DNA of 64,000 nucleotides from Dictyostelium discoideum (Eukaryota), in contig CM000151.3 in assembly GCA_000004695.1 (NCBI GenBank), forward strand, positions 7,392,001 through 7,456,000, read 5' to 3'. A program made the position numbers and the translations under genes. The notes under the pieces are model-generated. The model was not told the DNA's origin. It ran no database searches and saw only the letters and a list, made by a program, of their open reading frames with translations. Positions 16,795 through 27,700 of the stretch are shown in pieces (position 1 is the first letter of the stretch; the number at the start of each line of letters is the position of its first letter).

Positions 16795-17329
16795 ATGTCA
16801 AATAAATATTTTACTTTCTCAGGTGAACCAGACACCATAGTATTTTCCCAGTTTTTGGTTGGTTACAAATTATTATATAATGAACATTCAAAAAGCAATT
16901 TTTTCAAACACTTAAGAGGTGATGCAGCATTATTGTTCATTGGGAAGACCACCGATTCAAATTCATTAGATGATATAATCAATGTTCATCGATCTATATA
17001 AACAAGGGAGTGTCACTCCATTAGAGAAATTAATACATTTTCCGAAATCAAGATTCAATAATTTGCAACAATTAATTCACATAGTTAAATCAAATGTTGC
17101 AAACGTTACAGAACCAGAATTAGTTCGTATTTATACTGAATCTCTTCCACCATATTTAGATTCAAAATGGAGAAGCAAAACATCAGATCGATTGTTGATG
17201 CCATTGATTTGTCAAGAAGAATAGAAATTGCATATATCAATAGAGATGGTAGATCATTATTCAATGGTCAAATAGATAATTCAAAATTCACAAATTACAA
17301 TTTAAAATTAAATAATATTAATATTATCA

Positions 17330-17427
<98 letters not shown>

Positions 17428-18531
17428 TTTAATAATAATTATGAATCTTCTTACTCATCTACAAAATTTCAATCAATTCCATCAACAAGATATATAAGTA
17501 ATAATAACAATTCAAACTATAATAATAGAAATAATAAATATAATAAGATCAAATAATAATTTTGATTCAAATAGAAATTATAACTTCAGTTCAAATTATA
17601 GTGATTATAATAACAATAGTTATAACAATTATAGTAATAAAAATAATTATAACAATTATAATAATAATAATTTTAATAATCATAACAATTTTAATAATAA
17701 TTTTTACAATAATCATAAAAATTATTATATTAATAATAATAATAATAAAAATAATTATTATTATTATATCAATAACAATAATAAAAATAGTAATAATATC
17801 AGATTTAATAATAATGGATTAAAATGCCTTAATTGTGGTAGAGTAGGTCACATACCATTAAATTGTTGGATTAGCAAAAATAATAATAACCACAATAATA
17901 AAAATAATTCAATTAGAGATGAGGAGGAAACAATGATGATAATAATGACATCAATGATAATAACAATTATGATAATAATGAAAACAATAGTCCTTATCCT
18001 GTTAGTTCAATTAATGTATTGGGAGGTAGATTATTGGCAACATTAAATATTTTTGGTAAACCAATTAAAGGCTTAGTAGATTCTGGTTCTTTGTTATCAA
18101 TTTTATGGTCAAGTGTTGCAAAGCAATTAAGTTTACAAGTAATTCCAAAGAGAGTAAAGTTTACAACAGCATATGGACAAGAAATTTATTCAACTGGATC
18201 TGCAGAAGCAATTGTTAGTTTGGGTACAGCAATCAATAATTGTGAATTTATCATAGTTCAAGATAAAGTATTAAATGATAGTTGTATCTTTGGGTTGTCA
18301 GTATTGAAGAATGTAGGTATCAATATAGGAATCTGTGAGAATAACATTTACTGTCCTAAAACTGGTGGTAGTCAAGCATTAGAAACCAAATATGGAGGCT
18401 TTGCACAATCAATATGTAGTTTGAAGCAATCTACATCGGAAAATATCGATGATGGTGAAACTAGATTAAATCATGTTGATGCTCTTTCAAGAAATCCAAT
18501 TAACGATATACAAGATTTTAAAATAAAATAA
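16795..18531 (+). mobile_element. Remnant of a Ty3/gypsy-type LTR retrotransposon (Skipper- or DGLT-like): a frameshifted gag with a CCHC zinc knuckle, then an aspartic protease ORF. It is truncated before RT and integrase.
   Basis: Three consecutive + ORFs (16795, 16982, 17167) lie in different frames. A C-X2-C-X4-H-X4-C knuckle, KCLNCGRVGHIPLNC, lies at about 17826-17870. The protease ORF 18019..18531 contains LVDSGS (the D-S/T-G active site). A poly(A) run at 18570-18620 ends the fragment. Confidence 0.55.
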
Positions 18532-18572
18532 AGATTGTATATTATAATTAGACTAGGCCTATAAAATTTATT

Positions 18573-18623
<51 letters not shown>

Positions 18624-19297
18624 AATAAACAAATAAATGATGGATTTTATTTATTTTTTTACAACAAAAATAAACCTTTTTTTTAAACAATTTATTTTTA
18701 TTAAAAAAATACACCTTTAAATATTTAAAACATTGATTGTATTTAAATTAAAAATGATTAAAACACTAATATATTAAAAAAAAAAAAAAAAAAATTCACC
18801 AAATTCTGGTGGATCAACCTCACTTAAGATACATCTTTGCAAGTTGATTGGTTGGTTAATTGTATTTTATCAAATGAAATACCTGTATCTTGACCTATTA
18901 ATGAAATTGAAGAAGCATTATTTTCATCATAAGCGACTATATACTCATCAATAGAATTAATTTGGCTTGGGTGTTTTTTTCTAACAAACTCAAATTTTAT
19001 ATAGAGACCATCATTCAATGTAAATTTAGGTATTTGATAATTTGTAATCCATCTTCCCACCCATTTTCATCGACTTCTCCCTTATTCATAATTCTTCATA
19101 TTAATACATCTTAATTACCCGTAATTGACAAACCAATTGGTTAGTTATTTATTGGATATAGTTATTTACTTCCTCTAGTTCAAATATTTGGTTCTTGATC
19201 CCTTGATAAAAGTAATAATAATAAAAATGGGGGAAATTTTTACCCTTTTTAAATTAAAACCAAGGAAAATAAAAAAAAAAAAAATTTATTATTATTA

Positions 19298-20584
19298 TTA
19301 TAAAAAAGTAACTGAAATTAAATTTGGTAATTTTAATTGTTTTAATTGATATTTAAAATAACTTGGTATTGTTAAATGAGTGATATTAAAAATATCAGTA
19401 ATTGAATGATTGAAATTTAAACCTAATTTTAAGTAACGAATAGAGGAAGGAATATTTTTTGATGAAATTGAATGATTAAAGTATTTTCCTAAATCCAATG
19501 TAACAACAGATGATGGTATTGAATTTTCCAATAAAGGTTGATTATAAAAATCAAATGAAAGATTTATAACAGAGTTTGGAATAACAAAAGGTGAAATTTG
19601 ATAACCATAGAAATCGATATGTAATGTTGTAATTGATGTTGGTATCATACCAATTGGAATTTGCAATGGTAAACTACCTTTTAAAAATAAATCAACAACT
19701 GTTAATGGAATCGAACCAACTTTTATACATTTACTATTTCGTAAATGTATTTTAAGTTTTTTTATACTTGAAGGAATTATAATATCTTTACCAAATACTA
19801 AACTTGAATTTAAATTTCCAGAAAATTCCAATATACTACAATTAATTGGTATTAGATTTTGGTCAGCATCATCACCACCACCACCTACACTACCATCACC
19901 ACCAACACCACCACCACCACAAAGTGATTGATTAAATTCATTTGAAAATATTAAATGATTTAATGATTTTGGTAAAATATTAATATCTAATTTATGATTA
20001 TATAATTTCCCCATATCTAAAAAAGTGATTGAATTTGGTAATGAATTTGGAATTAAAGATTGATTTAATGAACCTAAATTTAAAGATTTTAAATTAAGAG
20101 GTAAATAATTAACTTCAATTTGATGATTATAATAGTTTCCAAGATTTAATTCAATTAATTGAGTTAATTGATTTAAAACATTTGGTGATTGTAATTTTAA
20201 ATTTCCAATACCAATTAGATTTGTTAAAGATTTTGGTAAATCAAAAACTTTTAATATTTGAGAGAATTTAACACCTAAATAAAGAGTTTTGATAGAGTTT
20301 GGTAGTATTCCCTCTTCCAATGGTTTATTAAATTCTTCACCTAAATTTAAATACTCTAATTGAGGTGGAATTGAACCATGAATCAATGCTTTATTAAATA
20401 TACTACCGAGTGAAAGTTTTTTTAAAGTAATTGGTAGATCACCTGGTTTAATCTCTTCATTAAATCTATTATAATGTGTAAAATTCAATTCAGTTAATGA
20501 TAAACAATGACCAAGTTCAATTTTCCTATCATAGCATTGCATTATTGTTAATGATTCTATTGAAGAGATTGAAATGATTGGCAA
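19298..20584 (-). CDS. FNIP-repeat protein (3' portion of an FNIP gene). The first ATG is at 20542; the track's 'M' at 20584 is TTG.
   Basis: The ~22-aa FNIP units (LPxSIxxLxFGxxFNQxI) repeat many times, for example IPNSVINLSFDFYNQPL and IPSSIRYLKLGLNFNHSI. The N-terminal 'SIESLTIMQCYDRK' is encoded by the 46-bp segment duplicated at 25081-25126. Confidence 0.75.
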   Translation of the reverse strand: MPIISISSIESLTIMQCYDRKIELGHCLSLTELNFTHYNRFNEEIKPGDLPITLKKLSLGSIFNKALIHGSIPPQLEYLNLGEEFNKPLEEGILPNSIKTLYLGVKFSQILKVFDLPKSLTNLIGIGNLKLQSPNVLNQLTQLIELNLGNYYNHQIEVNYLPLNLKSLNLGSLNQSLIPNSLPNSITFLDMGKLYNHKLDINILPKSLNHLIFSNEFNQSLCGGGGVGGDGSVGGGGDDADQNLIPINCSILEFSGNLNSSLVFGKDIIIPSSIKKLKIHLRNSKCIKVGSIPLTVVDLFLKGSLPLQIPIGMIPTSITTLHIDFYGYQISPFVIPNSVINLSFDFYNQPLLENSIPSSVVTLDLGKYFNHSISSKNIPSSIRYLKLGLNFNHSITDIFNITHLTIPSYFKYQLKQLKLPNLISVTFL

Positions 20585-23500
20585 AGGTGGTTTTGGAGTT
20601 GTTGTAAAGAGTAGAAATAAATTGGATTGTAGATATTATGCAATAAAGAAAATTAAAACCAAGGGTTATACAGACTCTAATCAAGAACCATTAACAAATA
20701 AACTTTTGAGAGAGGTAACAACTTTATCAAGATTACATCATCAATTTGTTGTTAGATATTATCAAGCTTGGATTGAGAAATCCTGTGATAGCTTTCAATC
20801 GTTGGAAGAAGGTAATGAAGATCTATCTGGTGATTTGGAAACTGATGCTTCAGAAGATTGGTTTATGCAATCAAGTATCAATAGTAGATCAATCATTTCA
20901 AGAGATTCTTATTCTGGTTTAAGTACTTCAAATAGTAATGTAGGTGGTGCCAATAATACAGCTGGTGGTGGTGATAGTGTTAGCAATGCAAATAGTAATA
21001 AAAGTATGATCGTTGGTAATAATAATAAAAAACTAACATTAAGTAGTAGTAATACATCATCATCGTCATCGTTATTATCAAATAATAAAAGTAAAATTTT
21101 AAATACCTCAAAAAGTACAAGTACTAATACCAGTACAAGTACGAGCACAAGTAATACAAATAAAAATAAAAAAATTTCAAAGAAAAAGAAATCAAAATTA
21201 TCACCATTAATGAAACCAAAGAATAAAAAGAATAAAAATAATGGTGAAAGTGAACAAAGTTCAAGTGATAGTGAAAATGGTGAAAATGGAATGAAATCAA
21301 GAATAATTGAGAATGCTTCAGATTCATATAGTGATGATGATAATAATAATAATAATGATAGTAATAATAATTATCATAGTGATAATGAAAGTGATAGTTT
21401 TTCAGGTAGTATTAGTATGAGCGATGGTAATGGCAGTGGTTATGAAGCTACTGATGATGAAGACATTATTAATAATAGTGGTAGTTTTGATGATAATGAA
21501 AATGATGATGATGATGAAGAAGATGACGATGATGAATATGATGAAGAAGATGATGATTATGAAACATTTGATTTTCAAGATAAATCAAGAGTTGTTTCAA
21601 ATAATTCAAAATTATCAACATCATCATCTAGAAAGAAACCACCAAAAGAAACTCATACATTATATATTCAAATGGAGTATTGTTCAAAGAAAACCTTGAA
21701 AACTTTAATTGATAATGTGGGTGGTATAGCAGAGGAAGAGGCATTTAGATTATTACGTCAAATTGTTGAAGGTTTAAATCATATTCATAGTCAACAAATT
21801 ATTCATAGAGATTTAAAACCAGCCAATATTTTCATTGATAATGAGCAAAATGTAAAGATTGGTGATTTTGGTTTAGCAACAAGCGGTGCACCAGTTTCAA
21901 AATCTGACGATTTGAATTCAAGTACTTCAAATGCAGCCAATAATATTAATTTATCATCATCAACCAATTCAACTGCACAGCAAACTCCAATGTGGGATTT
22001 AAATGATGAAAATCTTAGCATGACAGGAGGTGTTGGTACACCATTCTATTGTTGTCCAGAGATTTTAGAAAAGAATACCAAACATTACGGAACCAAAGTT
22101 GATATGTATTCTTTGGGTATTATTTTCTTTGAAATGTGTTTTCAATTTCAAACTCAAATGGAACGTTCAAATATATTAAGAGATCTTAGAGACAATTTAA
22201 AATTTCCACCAGGATTCGAGTCGACTAAACCTGACCAAACTCAAATCATTAGATCCTTGTTATCAAGAGATCCAACTCAAAGACCATCAACTAAACAACT
22301 ATTGGAGAGTGGTTTATTACCATCAAAGATGGAAGATGATATCTTAAAAGAGGCAATTAAAACCATTGCAAATCCAACCATTTCTTTATTCTCTTATTTG
22401 ATGGAGAAATTGTTTTGTTTATCAAATGATGAACATATCATGTCAAGATATCTCTACACATCTAATCCATCATTAACCCCAATGCATTTAATTTGTAGGG
22501 AGAAAACATTTTCAAGATTGGAGAAAATCTTTTTAAATCATGGTTCAATAAGAATTGATACACCAACACTATTTCCAAAGAATCCAACAAATTCAACTCA
22601 TCCTGGTGCAGCCAATGTCGCCAAATTTTTAGATGAAAGTGGTACTGTAGTTTATTTACCATATGATCTAACTATACCATGGGCAAGACATGTAGTTATA
22701 CACAATATTCAACAAGCGAAAAGATATACTTTCTCAAAAGTTTATCGTAGATCTCAACCTGGTTTCTCACCAAAAGAATTATATGAATGCGATTTTGATA
22801 TAATTGGTCCTTCAAAATCTAGACATATAAGTGATGCTGAAACTTTAAGAATCATTATTGAAATTATGGAAGAATTTAAAGATGAATTATTTGGTAATAA
22901 TAGTGGCAGTAATAGTGGTAGTGGTAGTGGTGGTAGTATAAATTATAAGATTAGAATTAATCATTATGGATTGTTAGATAGTATTTTATCAGAATGTGGT
23001 GTTGAAAAAAGATTTTTTACAGTTGTTTATCAAACAGTAGCACAATTACATTGGAGATTAAATTGGGCTCAAGTTGCCCAATCTTTAAAGGAACATGGTT
23101 TATCAGCATCAATAGTTTCAAATATATCAACTTATTTTAGACAAAGGGGTGAATTAGCACAATGTGTCACTCAATTGGAATCATTATTAGCCAATCATAA
23201 AGAAGCAACAACCGGTATATCAGATTTAAAAATTTTGGTTAGAAATTTACAAATGATCAATATAATACCAAGGTTTTTATTGGATTTAAGTTTAATTCAT
23301 AATCATCAATACTATGAAGGTCTTGTTTTTCAAGCATATATTGAACGTCCAACTTTGTCAAATCCATCAAGAACTGAAATCATTATGTCTGGTGGTAGAT
23401 ATGATAAACTGATTAAATCACTTCATCCAAATCCATCATTGTCAAATAATATTGTTAGTGGTGTTGGTGTTACTTTAGCTTGTGAAAAAATTGTAAATTC

Positions 23501-24650
23501 AGTATTAAATTATCGTCAACATCTTTTAAATAATTGTTTCAATACTACTTATACTCGTCGAAATAAAGATCCTCCTAATAGTAATAACAACCCCAACAAC
23601 AACAACCTCAATAATAATGTTAGTATTTTTACTAAATTTCAATCACATATTGAAGTTTTTGTTTGTTCATTAGGATCCTCATTGCTTGGTGAAAAACTAC
23701 AAGTTGCATCTCAGCTATGGTCAGCTGGTATAAAAGCTGACTATTCTCAAACTGATTACTATTCTTCAGAAGATATCTATTCAAATTGTCGTGAAAATGG
23801 TATACCCTGGGTTGTAATATTAAGAGAAAAAGCCTTTCAAATTGGTAAATTAAAAGTTAAACAAATTGAAACAAGACAAGAAAGAACAGTTGCAAGAAAA
23901 GATTTAGTTGATTTTTTTTTAAAATCTAGAAAACATAACGTTGATTCAAAAAATATAATTCAAAATACAAGTAGCAGTGATTTATCAAATTTAATTGGTG
24001 GTATCAATAATTCTGGTAGTGGTGGTAGTGGTGGTAGTGGTGGTGGTAGTAGTATGAGTAGTGGTGGTGGTGGTGGTGGTAATAGTAATATTGGAGGAAG
24101 TGATCATCACCATCATGGTCATCATAGTAATCAATCAACATCGAGTAGTGGTAATTCCAATAATAGTAATACACAACAAACATCTCCAATTCAACATCAT
24201 GTTCACTTTAGTAATACAAAAAGTATAATTGGCTCAAGTGGGATTATTAGCAACGCAACATTTAGTGGAGGTAGCAGTAGTAGTAGTAATATTATTCACT
24301 TTGATGAACCGACAGATTCATTTAGTACTCAAATAGTTTATCAAGGTGTTGAAGAAATAAAGAAATCTAAAATCGAAACATTGGTTCAAACTTCACTTTC
24401 AAAATTATTCAGAGGATTCATTCAATCAAAGTCTTCAACTATTCGTGTTATTGTAACAGATTTAGCTTATTCTGTGATTAGAGATTTACAAATTTCAGAA
24501 TCTCATGATAATATATCAAAGTTCCAGCGTGTAAGCAAAGAAAAACTCTTACAACTTAAAAATCAAATCTTTAAATGGAAAGTTTACCCATTCATTGTCA
24601 TTCATTCAATTAAAGATGATAAATCAGTTATATTTAATAGTGTTGTTTAA
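20574..24650 (+). CDS. GCN2-type eIF2-alpha kinase (ifk family). The kinase domain has a large acidic/Asn-rich insert, followed by a HisRS-like regulatory domain. The ORF begins inside kinase subdomain I.
   Basis: The kinase motifs are [36 protein letters not shown], DFGLA and PFYCCPE. The C-terminal HisRS-like region includes ...[23 protein letters not shown]... and ...[10 protein letters not shown].... There is no RWD or pseudokinase domain. The frame opens only at 20535 after an in-frame TAG. Its start codon overlaps the FNIP gene on the opposite strand. Confidence 0.8.
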   Translation: [1358 protein letters not shown]

Positions 24651-25051
24651 ATAAAGTTATAAAAAATATTTCATCATTTTACAATTTTTTTTTTTTTTTT
24701 TTTTTCCACCATCTTACAATTAAAAACTTGTGGCATTTGGAAATCTCAAACTGTTGGGTACATTAGAATCAAAAAAAAGCCAAATAAAAATATAAAATAA
24801 AAAAATAAAAATGCATTGTAAAAATTTAGTTTTTTTTTTTTTTTTGAGCGTCTCCAAACAATTAAACGATAATAAATTTATCAATTCCTTGATTGTTAGA
24901 ACTAAATTTTTATAATGCATTGGTATTTTTTTTGAATTTTTAATTTATTTTATTTTTTTATTTTTTTATTTTATTTTTTTATTTTTTTATTTTATTTTTT
25001 TATTTTTTTTTATTTTATTTGTAAAAAAAAACTAAATTTTTATAATGCATT

Positions 25052-25729
25052 TTATAAATCAATAATTATTTCTTCGTTATTTCTCATTTTCCTATCATAG
25101 CATTGCATTATTGTTAATGATTCTATTGAATTTTTTAATGAGTTATTAAAGGGATACCCAAATTTTATATTTTTAACACAAGATGGAATTTCACCAAAAT
25201 TAATCACTTGATTAAAACAATTAAATTCTAAAGTATGAATTGATGATGGAAATGATTCTATTGATAATGGTCTATTAAATGAATCAAATATTAAATTTGT
25301 AACTGATGATGGAATTATATTATTTTTTCTAATAGATTGATTAAAATTATTTCCAAATTTTAGTGTACTAATTGATGATGGTATTTGATTCTCTCTAATT
25401 TGTTGATTAAATTTTCCAACAAGTTCTAAAGTTGTAATTGAATTTGGTATTTTATTAAAATATAATTTTAATGGATCATTAAAACATATTATTAAATGTT
25501 TAATAAATTCTTTTTTTTCAAATTTAATAAAATCTTGACAATTATAAAATACTTTTTTAAAAGATTCTTGATAAATTTTTAAATAATTTAAAATTTTAAA
25601 TTTTAAATAATTATTTTTCCAAATTAAAAAAAAAAATTTATCATTAAATTTAAAATTTTCTTTTAATTCTTCATTTAATTCTTCATTTATTTCAATGATT
25701 TTAAATAAAATACTATAAATTTTAATCAT
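25052..25729 (-). CDS. FNIP-repeat protein fragment (5' portion of an FNIP gene) ending ...SIESLTIMQCYDRKMRNNEEIIIDL*
   Basis: FNIP units include IPNSITTLELVGKFNQQI, IPSSISTLKFGNNFNQSI and IPSSVTNLIFDSFNRPL. The C-terminal codons lie in the 46-bp repeat shared with 20521-20566. Confidence 0.65.
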   Translation of the reverse strand: MIKIYSILFKIIEINEELNEELKENFKFNDKFFFLIWKNNYLKFKILNYLKIYQESFKKVFYNCQDFIKFEKKEFIKHLIICFNDPLKLYFNKIPNSITTLELVGKFNQQIRENQIPSSISTLKFGNNFNQSIRKNNIIPSSVTNLIFDSFNRPLSIESFPSSIHTLEFNCFNQVINFGEIPSCVKNIKFGYPFNNSLKNSIESLTIMQCYDRKMRNNEEIIIDL

Positions 25730-26010
25730 ATTTTATATATATAAATATTTAAAAAAAAATTAAAAAAAAATTAAAAAAAAAATGAAACTGGTCCCACTTT
25801 CATGATATTTTTTATAAAAAATAAAAAAAATAAAAAAAAAAAAAAGAAAATATTATTTAATTTTAAAATTTATTTATTTTTTTTTTTAAAAAAAGATATT
25901 TTTGTTTTGTTTTTTTTTTTTTTTTGATTTTTTTTTTTTTTTTTTTTTTTTTCATAAGAAGATTATTATTTATAATTTTAAAAATTTAATAATTATTTTT
26001 TTTTTTTTTT

Positions 26011-27700
26011 TTAAAAACCATTGAGATCGTTTACGTCGAAACCTCCGTCAGCGAAACCAATTTCAACACCATCATAAAAACCATCACCCAAATTATCATT
26101 GTTTTCTTGATGTAAATTGTTTGATGGAATATTATTATGTGGTCTTTGACCCCTTTGGGCTTCATAAGCATCAATTGCAGCTTCAACACTTGCTTGATTG
26201 TAACCTAAATCTGAGAGATCATCACCCCATCTACCTGTTGGTGGTCTAACGTATACACAATGGAGTTCACCACGTCTTGAAACGCATTCATGGTTTTCTG
26301 GGCAACCAACTTGTTTACAAGTTAATTTTGGACAATCTGGAACACAGAAAACTTGACCTTTTCTATTGCATTCACAATGGTGTTTTCTTGGACAACGTAC
26401 TTGATCACAGGTGGTCTTTGGAATACAATAGATCTTACCACGTACACAGATACATTTCTCACCTCTAGCGCAACTATCTGGACGACAACCATGGTGTGGT
26501 GGTTTTGGTCTATGAGTTGGTTCTTCGTTTCTTACACATCTAGCAACATTTTCCCAATGATTACATTCACAATGGTAACCTCTTGGACATCTAACATTAT
26601 CGCATGATGCTCTTGGTGGTTGTGTTGGTGGATAAGTTGGTGGATAAGTTGGTGGATAAGTTGGTGGTTGAGTTGGTGGTTGAGTTGGTGGATAAGTTGG
26701 TGATTGAGTTGGTGGATGAGTTGGTGGAACTGTAGTATCACAAACACATGTTCTACGATTATTTACAATTTCACAATGGAAACCTTCTGGGCATTCTAAA
26801 GTTGAACAATCTATTATTTTTTTTAAAAAAAAAAAAAAAAAGAAATTAACAAATGAGTTTTTAATTTTATGGATTTTATATAATTTAAAATAATACTTTA
26901 CCTTGTACTGGTGGTTGAGTTGGTGGTTGTGTTGGTGGATAAGTTGGTGGATAAGTTGGTGGATGAGTTGGTGGATAAGTTGGTGGATAAGTTGGTGGAT
27001 AAGTTGGTGGATAAGTTGGTGGATAAGTTGGTGGTTGTGTTGGTGGTTGTGTTGGTGGTTGTGTTGGTGGATAAGTTGGTGGTTGTGTTGGTGGTTGAGT
27101 TGGTGATTGTGTAATGATTGGACGAATGTTACAATTGATATCAACAATAGTGTAACCATAAATTAACCAAACAGAGATACCATTATCACCATTTTTACCA
27201 TTTGCACCATAACCGAGTTGTAATGGCATACCACCTTCAGCACCGGAAAAGACGACATTTTGAGGGTCACAACCAAAACCAGTCCATTTACCTTGAACAA
27301 AAGTATAATATTTCCAAGTGGCTGGGTCAATTGGTCCATGTGGAACGTATGCACTTTCTCTTAGCTCTTTCTTTGGCATAACATTACCAGATTTATCTTT
27401 CTTGAATACTAAATCAACATTGTATCTGTGGCAATCACCCATATTAACAGTTGGATAAATTTTACCTGTGATATGCATTTCATCACCATTAATTTCCATT
27501 ATACCAGAATTATCTTGGAAATTCCAATCATGGAAACCATAGAAAACTGGTAAAGACGCATTTTGAACCCAGAAATCATGTGTTCCTGTTTTATCATCGG
27601 TTAAATATGGATCATTATAAGCCGGTGACAATTGGTATTTTTGTGCATAGGTACCTGCTAAACAGAGGAATCCTATTAAAAGAACACTTAATAGTCTCAT
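26011..27700 (-). CDS. Spore-coat protein family member (cotB/cotC-like): signal peptide, Dicty_spore_N-like domain, TQPPTYPPT proline-rich repeats, Cys-rich CPxGxHCEC repeats; complement(join(26011..26810,26902..27700))
   Basis: It starts MRLLSVLLIGFLCLAGTYAQ (signal peptide). Two overlapping minus ORFs in different frames are joined by a 91-nt GTAAAG..atAG intron. Repeats read (T/Y)(Q/Y)PPT. The Cys repeats CPEGFHCE, CPRGYHCEC, CPRKHHCEC and CPENHEC match those in the 57284 gene. CAE-like GT/CA-rich promoter elements lie upstream. Confidence 0.6.

Follow-up and report, generated by a model that had tools for sequence, protein, structure and literature searches.

The kinase gene ifkB of Dictyostelium discoideum is very probably a very young partial duplicate of ifkA that has been inserted into an FNIP-repeat gene. 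It lies in a stretch of 64,000 nucleotides of chromosome 2 (GenBank assembly GCA_000004695.1, contig CM000151.3, forward strand, positions 7,392,001 to 7,456,000), which is called the window here and to which all coordinates refer. The open reading frame (ORF) that begins with the ATG at 20574 is ifkB, with 100% identity to DDB_G0276829, a gene which in AX4 carries the database name "probable serine/threonine-protein kinase ifkB". In the literature ifkB is counted as one of three Dictyostelium GCN2 homologues, and knock-outs are developmentally affected. At this locus 4521 bp have been inserted between the two copies of a 45-bp target-site duplication, next to which 9 bp are deleted, and the insertion is polymorphic within D. 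discoideum. An earlier note on this DNA had proposed that an insertion or duplication had split an FNIP gene and brought in a truncated GCN2-type kinase, a proposal that is borne out by empty sites in other strains, by the loci of sister species and by the identity with IfkA.

The features that define the insertion are:
19298-20564, minus strand: C-terminal fragment of the FNIP gene, annotated from an internal ATG at 20542 as DDB_G0276827, 414 aa (P0239).
20520-20564, no strand: left copy of the target-site duplication, FNIP sequence; exact match, the minus strand of which encodes SIESLTIMQCYDRK.
20565-25085, plus strand: inserted segment of 4521 bp, missing from the empty-site alleles at loci L006, L007 and L009-L011.
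20574-24650, plus strand: ifkB coding sequence, 1358 aa (100% match to P0001 and to UniRef Q550L8; Pfam scan).
25086-25130, no strand: right copy of the target-site duplication; exact match, aligning to the single 45 bp of the empty-site alleles.
25086-25729, minus strand: N-terminal fragment of the FNIP gene (ORF and Pfam; collinear locus in a second assembly).
25130-25131, no strand: site of the 9-bp deletion in the insertion allele, TTTGGTAAA on the plus strand, NLP in the protein.
Left junction of the insertion: TGATTCTATTGAAGAGATTGAAATGATTGG.
Right junction of the insertion: CGTTATTTCTCATTTTCCTATCATAGC.
Site without the insertion: TCTATTGAATTTGGTAAATTTTTTAATG.

An exact string search located the 45-bp string at 20520-20564 and again at 25086-25130, without mismatches and nowhere else in the window; none of 100 shuffled sequences contained any match. 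The flanking bases of the two copies differ at once on either side, so the length is 45 bp. The earlier note was therefore right in calling the repeat perfect, but its length of 46 bp has to be corrected and its coordinates for the second copy are off by about 5-7 bases. The peptide (S)IESLTIMQCYDRK, for which the minus strand of the repeat codes, is found near the C-terminus of the ORF at 25052-25729 and near the N-terminus of the ORF at 19298-20584. A repeat scan detected neither terminal inverted repeats nor long terminal repeats at the ends of the insert and, according to the ORF list and Pfam, the insert encodes no transposase, integrase or reverse transcriptase, its sole long ORF being ifkB.

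When 20565-25130 (4566 bp) is removed in silico, a single uninterrupted FNIP-repeat ORF of 621 aa results. Both pieces match the FNIP family PF05725, the C-terminal fragment with nine stretches (E-value 1.6e-60) and the N-terminal fragment with four (E-value 2e-30), so that the two joined pieces do read as one continuous protein, as had been claimed. The ORF of the N-terminal fragment extends 34 nt into the insert and stops at 25052, giving 225 aa with the tail MRNNEEIIIDL before the stop codon. The insertion takes the promoter from the C-terminal fragment and the 3' end from the N-terminal one.

Alleles without the insertion exist in other strains. Clustered at 90% identity, the C-terminal FNIP fragment falls together with two D. 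discoideum proteins, of 617 and 618 aa, and with two others that come from Logan assemblies. The 617- and 618-aa proteins are intact FNIP alleles at loci L006 and L007, the assemblies of which belong to the wild isolates CR116C and OT3A according to the table of the respective paper [PMC12745789]. Both loci are syntenic with the window, comprising in the same order the 506-aa neighbour, the FNIP gene, a Zn-ribbon gene, a GTPase, CfaA_B_C and an aldehyde dehydrogenase; there is no kinase gene at either locus and the FNIP gene is unbroken. In blastn alignments, a single 45-bp stretch of L006 and L007 matches both 20520-20564 and 25086-25130, the left flank matches 19158-20564 and the right flank matches from 25086 to about 35700.

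The same empty-site structure was found in the Logan contigs L009-L011 from seven runs (SRR28564543, SRR26869268 and SRR26869257, the last contig being present in five samples), with no substitutions relative to AX4 over about 1.9 kb. In all of these alleles, at L006, L007 and L009-L011, the sequence up to window position 20564 is joined straight to that of 25086-25130 and beyond. That L009-L011 span the site by 200-1300 bp on each side speaks for a true absence of the insertion from them, as a de Bruijn assembler would break at the 45-bp repeat if it were present. They differ from AX4 by three indels only, namely a 2-bp deletion at about 25180, 9 additional bp to the right of 25130 and 3 additional bp at about 19875. 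The 9-bp deletion of the insertion allele adjoins the right repeat and is a deletion relative to five out of five empty-site alleles. The insertion is young, as shown by the identity of the two repeat copies, by the open reading frames that both FNIP halves have kept and by the AX4-like haplotype of the empty allele. As a separate observation, the 2-bp deletion in L009-L011 (TG, at the equivalent of about 25180) shifts the FNIP frame, which suggests that the FNIP gene is dispensable, being broken by another lesion in strains without the ifkB insertion.

A second assembly carries the locus in the same form. GCA_054883475.1 is a de novo Nanopore and Illumina assembly of D. discoideum from a study in which AX2-214 and nine wild isolates were assembled in this way, under JBTAP accessions [Holland et al. 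2025, PMC12745789]. Locus L002 of GCA_054883475.1 is collinear with 10552-34687 of the window at 99.7% identity and encodes the same IfkB protein. Over 19000-26100, which includes both repeats and both junctions, it is identical to the window except for seven positions, all within AT-rich intergenic sequence at 25867-25930. A misjoin in the AX4 reference, by which the 45-bp repeat and the kinase within the FNIP gene would be artefacts, could be imagined because a near-identical parent such as ifkA is the type of repeat that is able to mislead assemblers. The probability of such an error is however close to nil, as both junctions are unique sequence and recur base for base in an independent de novo long-read assembly, the kind of data that the earlier note had called for as a check against misassembly.

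The IfkB protein has the architecture of the C-terminal part of a GCN2-type kinase. A Pfam scan identified a Pkinase domain (E-value 3.8e-55) in two stretches separated by a long insert, followed by a histidyl-tRNA synthetase-like (HisRS-like) domain at residues 803-962 (PF13393, tRNA-synt_His, E-value 8.4e-19) and a C-terminus that resembles anticodon-binding domains (PF12745, HGTP_anticodon2, E-value 4.2e-16; PF03129, HGTP_anticodon, E-value 1.3e-9). The table of the 2006 kinome paper places IfkB in the class Other/PEK/GCN2 and gives the YAIK, HRDLKPAN and DFG motifs as intact. The best non-dictyostelid matches are fungal and animal GCN2 proteins with 31-37% identity, obtained in a representative protein search that merges relatives of more than 50% identity into one and cannot show how close IfkA and IfkB are. 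The same Pfam scan gave no match to RWD (PF05773) in the ifkB ORF, a domain that the D. firmibasis orthologue P0002 and others do have, and an N-terminal pseudokinase or second kinase-like domain was found neither in the ORF nor in the 64-kb window. Likewise, nothing in the window is homologous to residues 1-872 of the D. firmibasis orthologue; their sole match is a weak one, in which the N-terminal kinase-like domain cross-matches the kinase domain of ifkB. The absence of an N-terminal RWD and pseudokinase region, which the earlier note had pointed out, is thus confirmed.

Upstream, the kinase frame is closed by the TAG at 20535-20537, as had been noted, and reads HCIIVNDSIEEIEMIGKGGFG. Just before 20535 there is a polypyrimidine tract with an AG, and from 20538 the kinase frame is open, so that the AG might be taken for the splice acceptor of an intron, with a distant upstream exon supplying the missing N-terminus. 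This reading, raised in the earlier note as an alternative, is very unlikely. The homology to every full-length relative ends at 20560, the codons at 20538-20559 are antisense FNIP sequence which is present in the empty alleles too, coding sequence for an RWD or pseudokinase domain is missing from the 64 kb, and two independent annotations place the start of the protein at 20574. A short unrelated 5' exon of ifkB may nevertheless exist.

The start codon of ifkB (20574, plus strand) is 31 bp from the annotated start codon of the FNIP fragment (20542, minus strand). The GC content upstream of the ifkB ATG is 0.23-0.28, which is the coding level, compared with 0.08-0.15 in nearby intergenic DNA, and there is consequently no AT-rich intergenic dip upstream of ifkB, which agrees with the statement of the earlier note that no space is left for a promoter. 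With the GC content at coding level, the transcription start of ifkB must lie within what used to be FNIP coding sequence or upstream of it. A scan with sigma-70 promoter and terminator models was discarded, as bacterial models are irrelevant to a eukaryote; it gave fewer sites than were found in shuffled sequences.

Full-length genes of this type are present in sister species. In D. firmibasis, D. citrinum and D. cf. discoideum, a kinase gene with models of 2231, 2285 and 2445 aa, respectively, is located directly downstream of a lipase gene, and the lipase served as the anchor by which the D. cf. discoideum and D. citrinum loci were found. No FNIP gene is located near the kinase gene of D. 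firmibasis. The D. firmibasis protein (P0002) is the closest relative outside the strain and combines an RWD domain and two regions of the kinase type with a HisRS-like domain. For this protein the RWD and the N-terminal kinase-like domain are recorded in Pfam, whereas in the other two species the N-terminal region is recognised only by alignment with it. In all three species the nucleotide homology to the window begins at 20560 (blastn), and in all three the copied part of the gene is a single exon with no intron. The synonymous divergence (dS) of ifkB is 0.17 to D. cf. discoideum, 0.37 to D. citrinum and 0.54 to D. firmibasis, with ratios of nonsynonymous to synonymous divergence (dN/dS) of 0.18-0.25, and these divergences follow the species tree.

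An acceleration after truncation (47 versus 21 lineage-specific amino-acid changes) was considered and dropped, as the excess belongs to the whole D. discoideum lineage and ifkA is near-identical. P0121 (832 aa, RWD and kinase-like domain), a candidate for a naturally split gene, was rejected as a truncated gene model that ends inside the kinase domain. The D. cf. discoideum model (L003, 13499-21172, 2445 aa) overruns the conserved stop codon at 20884-20886 by 286 bp, which is probably an annotation artefact. It should be added that the word-indexed protein search misses proteins of 85-100% identity, among them the D. cf. discoideum and D. citrinum kinases and even P0002, although the query was its own N-terminus, so that absences from it carry no weight as evidence. 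In detail, the search with the N-terminal 872 residues of D. firmibasis was swamped by low-complexity words and did not return the query protein itself, and a composite query of lipase, RWD/pseudokinase, FNIP and neighbouring proteins returned lipases and a few GCN2 proteins, and neither an FNIP nor any D. discoideum protein.

The parent of the copy is retained in the genome. The tree file of the 2006 kinome paper reads (IfkB:0.0001, IfkA-b:0.0001). In the available part of the accompanying alignment, IfkA-b runs from residue 1024 (FEEIEMIGKGGFG) and IfkB from residue 1 (MIGKGGFG), and the two rows are the same but for one residue (STSNTANN versus STSNAANN); as far as that part extends, the agreement includes the variable insert segment that differs between species. 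The domain comparison with IfkA that the earlier note had suggested thus yields a second IfkA kinase domain which is essentially identical to that of IfkB. According to the main text of the kinome paper, IfkA is the only dual-domain GCN2-family kinase in Dictyostelium. Its N-terminus, taken from the kinome supplement, is orthologous to the N-termini of the sister species, with identities of 76%, 71% and 57% in the order of the species tree, counted from about IfkA residue 86-90, where the main exon of the sister species begins. Judged by this identity, ifkB is a near-identical 5'-truncated duplicate of ifkA and not an old GCN2 paralogue.

One could also imagine that no copy was made and that the 3' part of a single ancestral gene moved into the FNIP gene while its 5' part was lost. 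In favour of such a relocation, no D. discoideum orthologue of the lipase was among the protein-search matches, and the neighbouring ComC-like gene of the AX2-type locus contains extra sequence. The protein search is however known to miss close relatives, and AX4 still possesses IfkA, in which the orthologous N-terminus is combined with a second kinase domain that is the same as in IfkB, which makes relocation extremely unlikely. As to the extra sequence, about 2.2 kb in the AX2-type locus L008 (reverse complement, 18230-20400) interrupt the second ComC-like gene in comparison with D. citrinum. The interrupted gene sits between RLP24 and the expected lipase/ifkA locus, and the L008 sequence, counted from RLP24, stops about 1.8 kb before the lipase gene would be expected.

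The two ends of the copied segment were traced by comparison with the sister species and by motif searches:
20560-20564, plus strand: TTGAA microhomology at the 5' junction, common to the FNIP target and the ifkA-type donor (sister-species alignment).
24651-24787, plus strand: copied 3' flank, alignable to the 3' flank of the D. cf. discoideum orthologue.
24788-25085, plus strand: AT-rich sequence of about 300 bp before the right repeat, ifkA 3' flank or junction filler.
24810-24831, minus strand: 22-nt motif AACTAAATTTTTAYAATGCATT, copy 1, inverted.
24900-24921, plus strand: the same motif, copy 2.
25030-25051, plus strand: the same motif, copy 3.

At the 5' junction, a three-species alignment gives ..ACTGATTTTGAAGAGATTGAAATG.. 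for the donor and ..AATGATTCTATTGAATTT.. for the FNIP target, with a further shared TGATT three bases upstream of TTGAA. On the 3' side, the homology to the D. cf. discoideum locus L003 ends at about 24777-24787, some 137 bp past the stop codon, and for 24770-25085 blast searches of the window and 11 loci returned only low-complexity matches. The 22-nt motif occurs in these three copies only, in the window and the 11 fetched loci taken together. The segment 24788-25085 is predicted to fold back strongly as single-stranded DNA (z -4.1), and A-rich and T-rich runs flank the motif copies. The triplicated motif and the fold-back may be the trace of template switching or the native 3' flank of ifkA.

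Under the proposed partial duplication, the segment copied from ifkA begins with the codon that precedes kinase subdomain I and extends some 140-435 bp beyond the stop codon, and its 5' end was joined to the FNIP target via the 5-bp microhomology TTGAA. The event duplicated 45 bp of the target and left the 9-bp deletion beside the right repeat. Two ORFs now stand in place of the one FNIP gene, and ifkB has antisense FNIP coding sequence where its promoter would normally be.

As to the template, we favour, with some reserve, copying from DNA, either by a template switch during replication (microhomology-mediated break-induced replication, MMBIR) or by the capture of a DNA fragment at a staggered break, because the copy includes up to 435 bp downstream of the stop codon, where the sequence is T-rich and looks intergenic, and there is neither a poly(A) tract at the right repeat nor a tRNA gene nearby. 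Retroposition, in which a 5'-truncated ifkA mRNA would have been reverse-transcribed into a staggered break by the machinery of a non-LTR (non-long-terminal-repeat) element, giving a retrogene with a target-site duplication, appears rather unlikely, although the 5' truncation, the microhomology at the 5' junction and the long target duplication of the variable type would all suit it. So would the end of the D. cf. discoideum 3' homology about 137 nt past the stop codon, at the start of an A-rich tract (24787-24812). However, the right repeat is not directly preceded by poly(A): the bases ahead of 25086 read ..TTCTTCGTTATTTCTC, and the sole A-rich tract lies about 270 bp upstream, with T-rich sequence prone to fold-back in between. 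The non-LTR (TRE) elements of D. discoideum insert next to tRNA genes; a tRNA scan found none within 15-30 kb, which argues against targeting of the TRE type. The lack of an intron does not help to decide, as the parental region is intronless in the sister species.

Several points weigh against the derivation of ifkB from ifkA as set out here, or limit it. The comparison of IfkA with IfkB is based on machine-read supplementary text and covers the kinase domain only, at the protein level. With 2258 aa and a kinase domain from 1024, IfkA would have about 1230 residues after residue 1028, compared with 1358 in IfkB, a difference of 128 residues that may be due to the gene model or to indels. The right boundary of the donor segment is bracketed at about 140-435 bp past the stop codon, and the 9-bp deletion may be a separate polymorphism and not part of the event. 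That GCA_054883475.1 would be AX2-214 is deduced from its near-identity to AX4. Finally, the ideas on pairing and on GCN1 independence that follow are drawn from yeast and mammalian GCN2.

In yeast, the activation of GCN2 by uncharged tRNA needs the GCN1-binding RWD domain and the pseudokinase domain. Being without an RWD domain, IfkB would be an eIF2-alpha kinase that is unable to bind GCN1. By analogy, its probable mode of action is a pairing with IfkA, mediated by the kinase, HisRS-like and C-terminal regions that both share; this would be the most economical solution, because the two proteins are near-identical in the regions which mediate GCN2 dimerisation. As for the phosphorylation of eIF2-alpha at Ser51, the evidence comes from the literature, in which IfkB is described as a known eIF2-alpha kinase that is expressed during growth and development, its null strain BS160 fails to translate BzpR, and BzpR translation is abolished by the loss of either ifkA or ifkB [PMC3293825]; pairing of the two would fit this loss in either mutant.

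We tentatively suggest that ifkB is restricted to the NC4-derived laboratory lineage or to a few natural strains and is an active GCN2 without RWD and pseudokinase domains, expressed from a promoter improvised in antisense FNIP sequence, although we consider this doubtful rather than likely. If ifkB were both lineage-restricted and active, the published ifkB phenotypes would be lineage-specific and would report GCN1-independent or IfkA-dependent GCN2 signalling that has arisen recently. A strain-restricted half-copy would also mean that what is found in AX2 and AX4 may not hold for strains without ifkB at this site. If the copy is recent, the near-identity of ifkA and ifkB affects the interpretation of targeting constructs, probes, antibodies and read mapping. 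If true, the locus would furthermore constitute a natural test of a GCN2 without RWD and pseudokinase domains and of how a promoterless new gene gains expression. In any case it exemplifies, for a genome that is extremely AT-rich, a clean and datable templated insertion with a target duplication of 45 bp. The gene itself is known, and its identity to the kinase domain of IfkA is already implicit in the 2006 supplement; its origin as a young, strain-polymorphic insertion into an FNIP gene is probably new, no description having been found in the searchable literature.

Two neighbouring regions may be mentioned in addition. On the plus strand, 16795-18531 holds a run of ORFs that includes an aspartyl protease of the retroviral type (PF13650/PF13975) but neither a reverse transcriptase nor an integrase, and that looks like the remnant of a retrotransposon about 770 bp from the 3' end of the FNIP gene. 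It corresponds to a 463-aa gene in the second assembly and to a 166-aa protease-like gene in L007, with a patchy match in L006. On the minus strand, 26011-27700 contains the gene of a secreted-looking protein with 12-bp tandem repeats encoding PTQPPTYP-type tracts and with cysteine-rich modules, the repeat arrays of which (26565-26775 and 26860-27154) dominate the repeat scan of the window.

Among known systems, the closest is IfkA (DDB_G0272837), a full-length GCN2-type eIF2-alpha kinase the kinase domain of which is essentially identical to that of IfkB. As seen through the sister-species orthologues, IfkB also shares the kinase insert, the HisRS-like domain and the C-terminal region with IfkA, whereas it lacks the first approximately 1028 residues, that is the RWD domain, an acidic low-complexity linker and the N-terminal kinase-like domain. 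Unlike ifkA-type genes, ifkB is located inside an FNIP gene instead of beside a lipase gene and has no AT-rich upstream region. With the GCN2 of yeast and mammals (EIF2AK4), IfkB has in common the Pkinase domain, the HisRS-like domain and the anticodon-binding-like C-terminus, but the GCN1-binding RWD domain and the pseudokinase domain of those proteins are missing. As a partial gene duplicate ifkB belongs to a familiar class, and it resembles other young members of this class, whether formed by templated insertion or by retroposition, in the insertion polymorphism with an empty site, the target duplication, the junction microhomology, the 5' truncation and the parent retained elsewhere. It differs from them in a 45-bp duplication that is long for a transposase, in being without terminal inverted repeats, transposase and clean poly(A), and in the 9-bp deletion and the locally triplicated 22-nt motif at its 3' junction.

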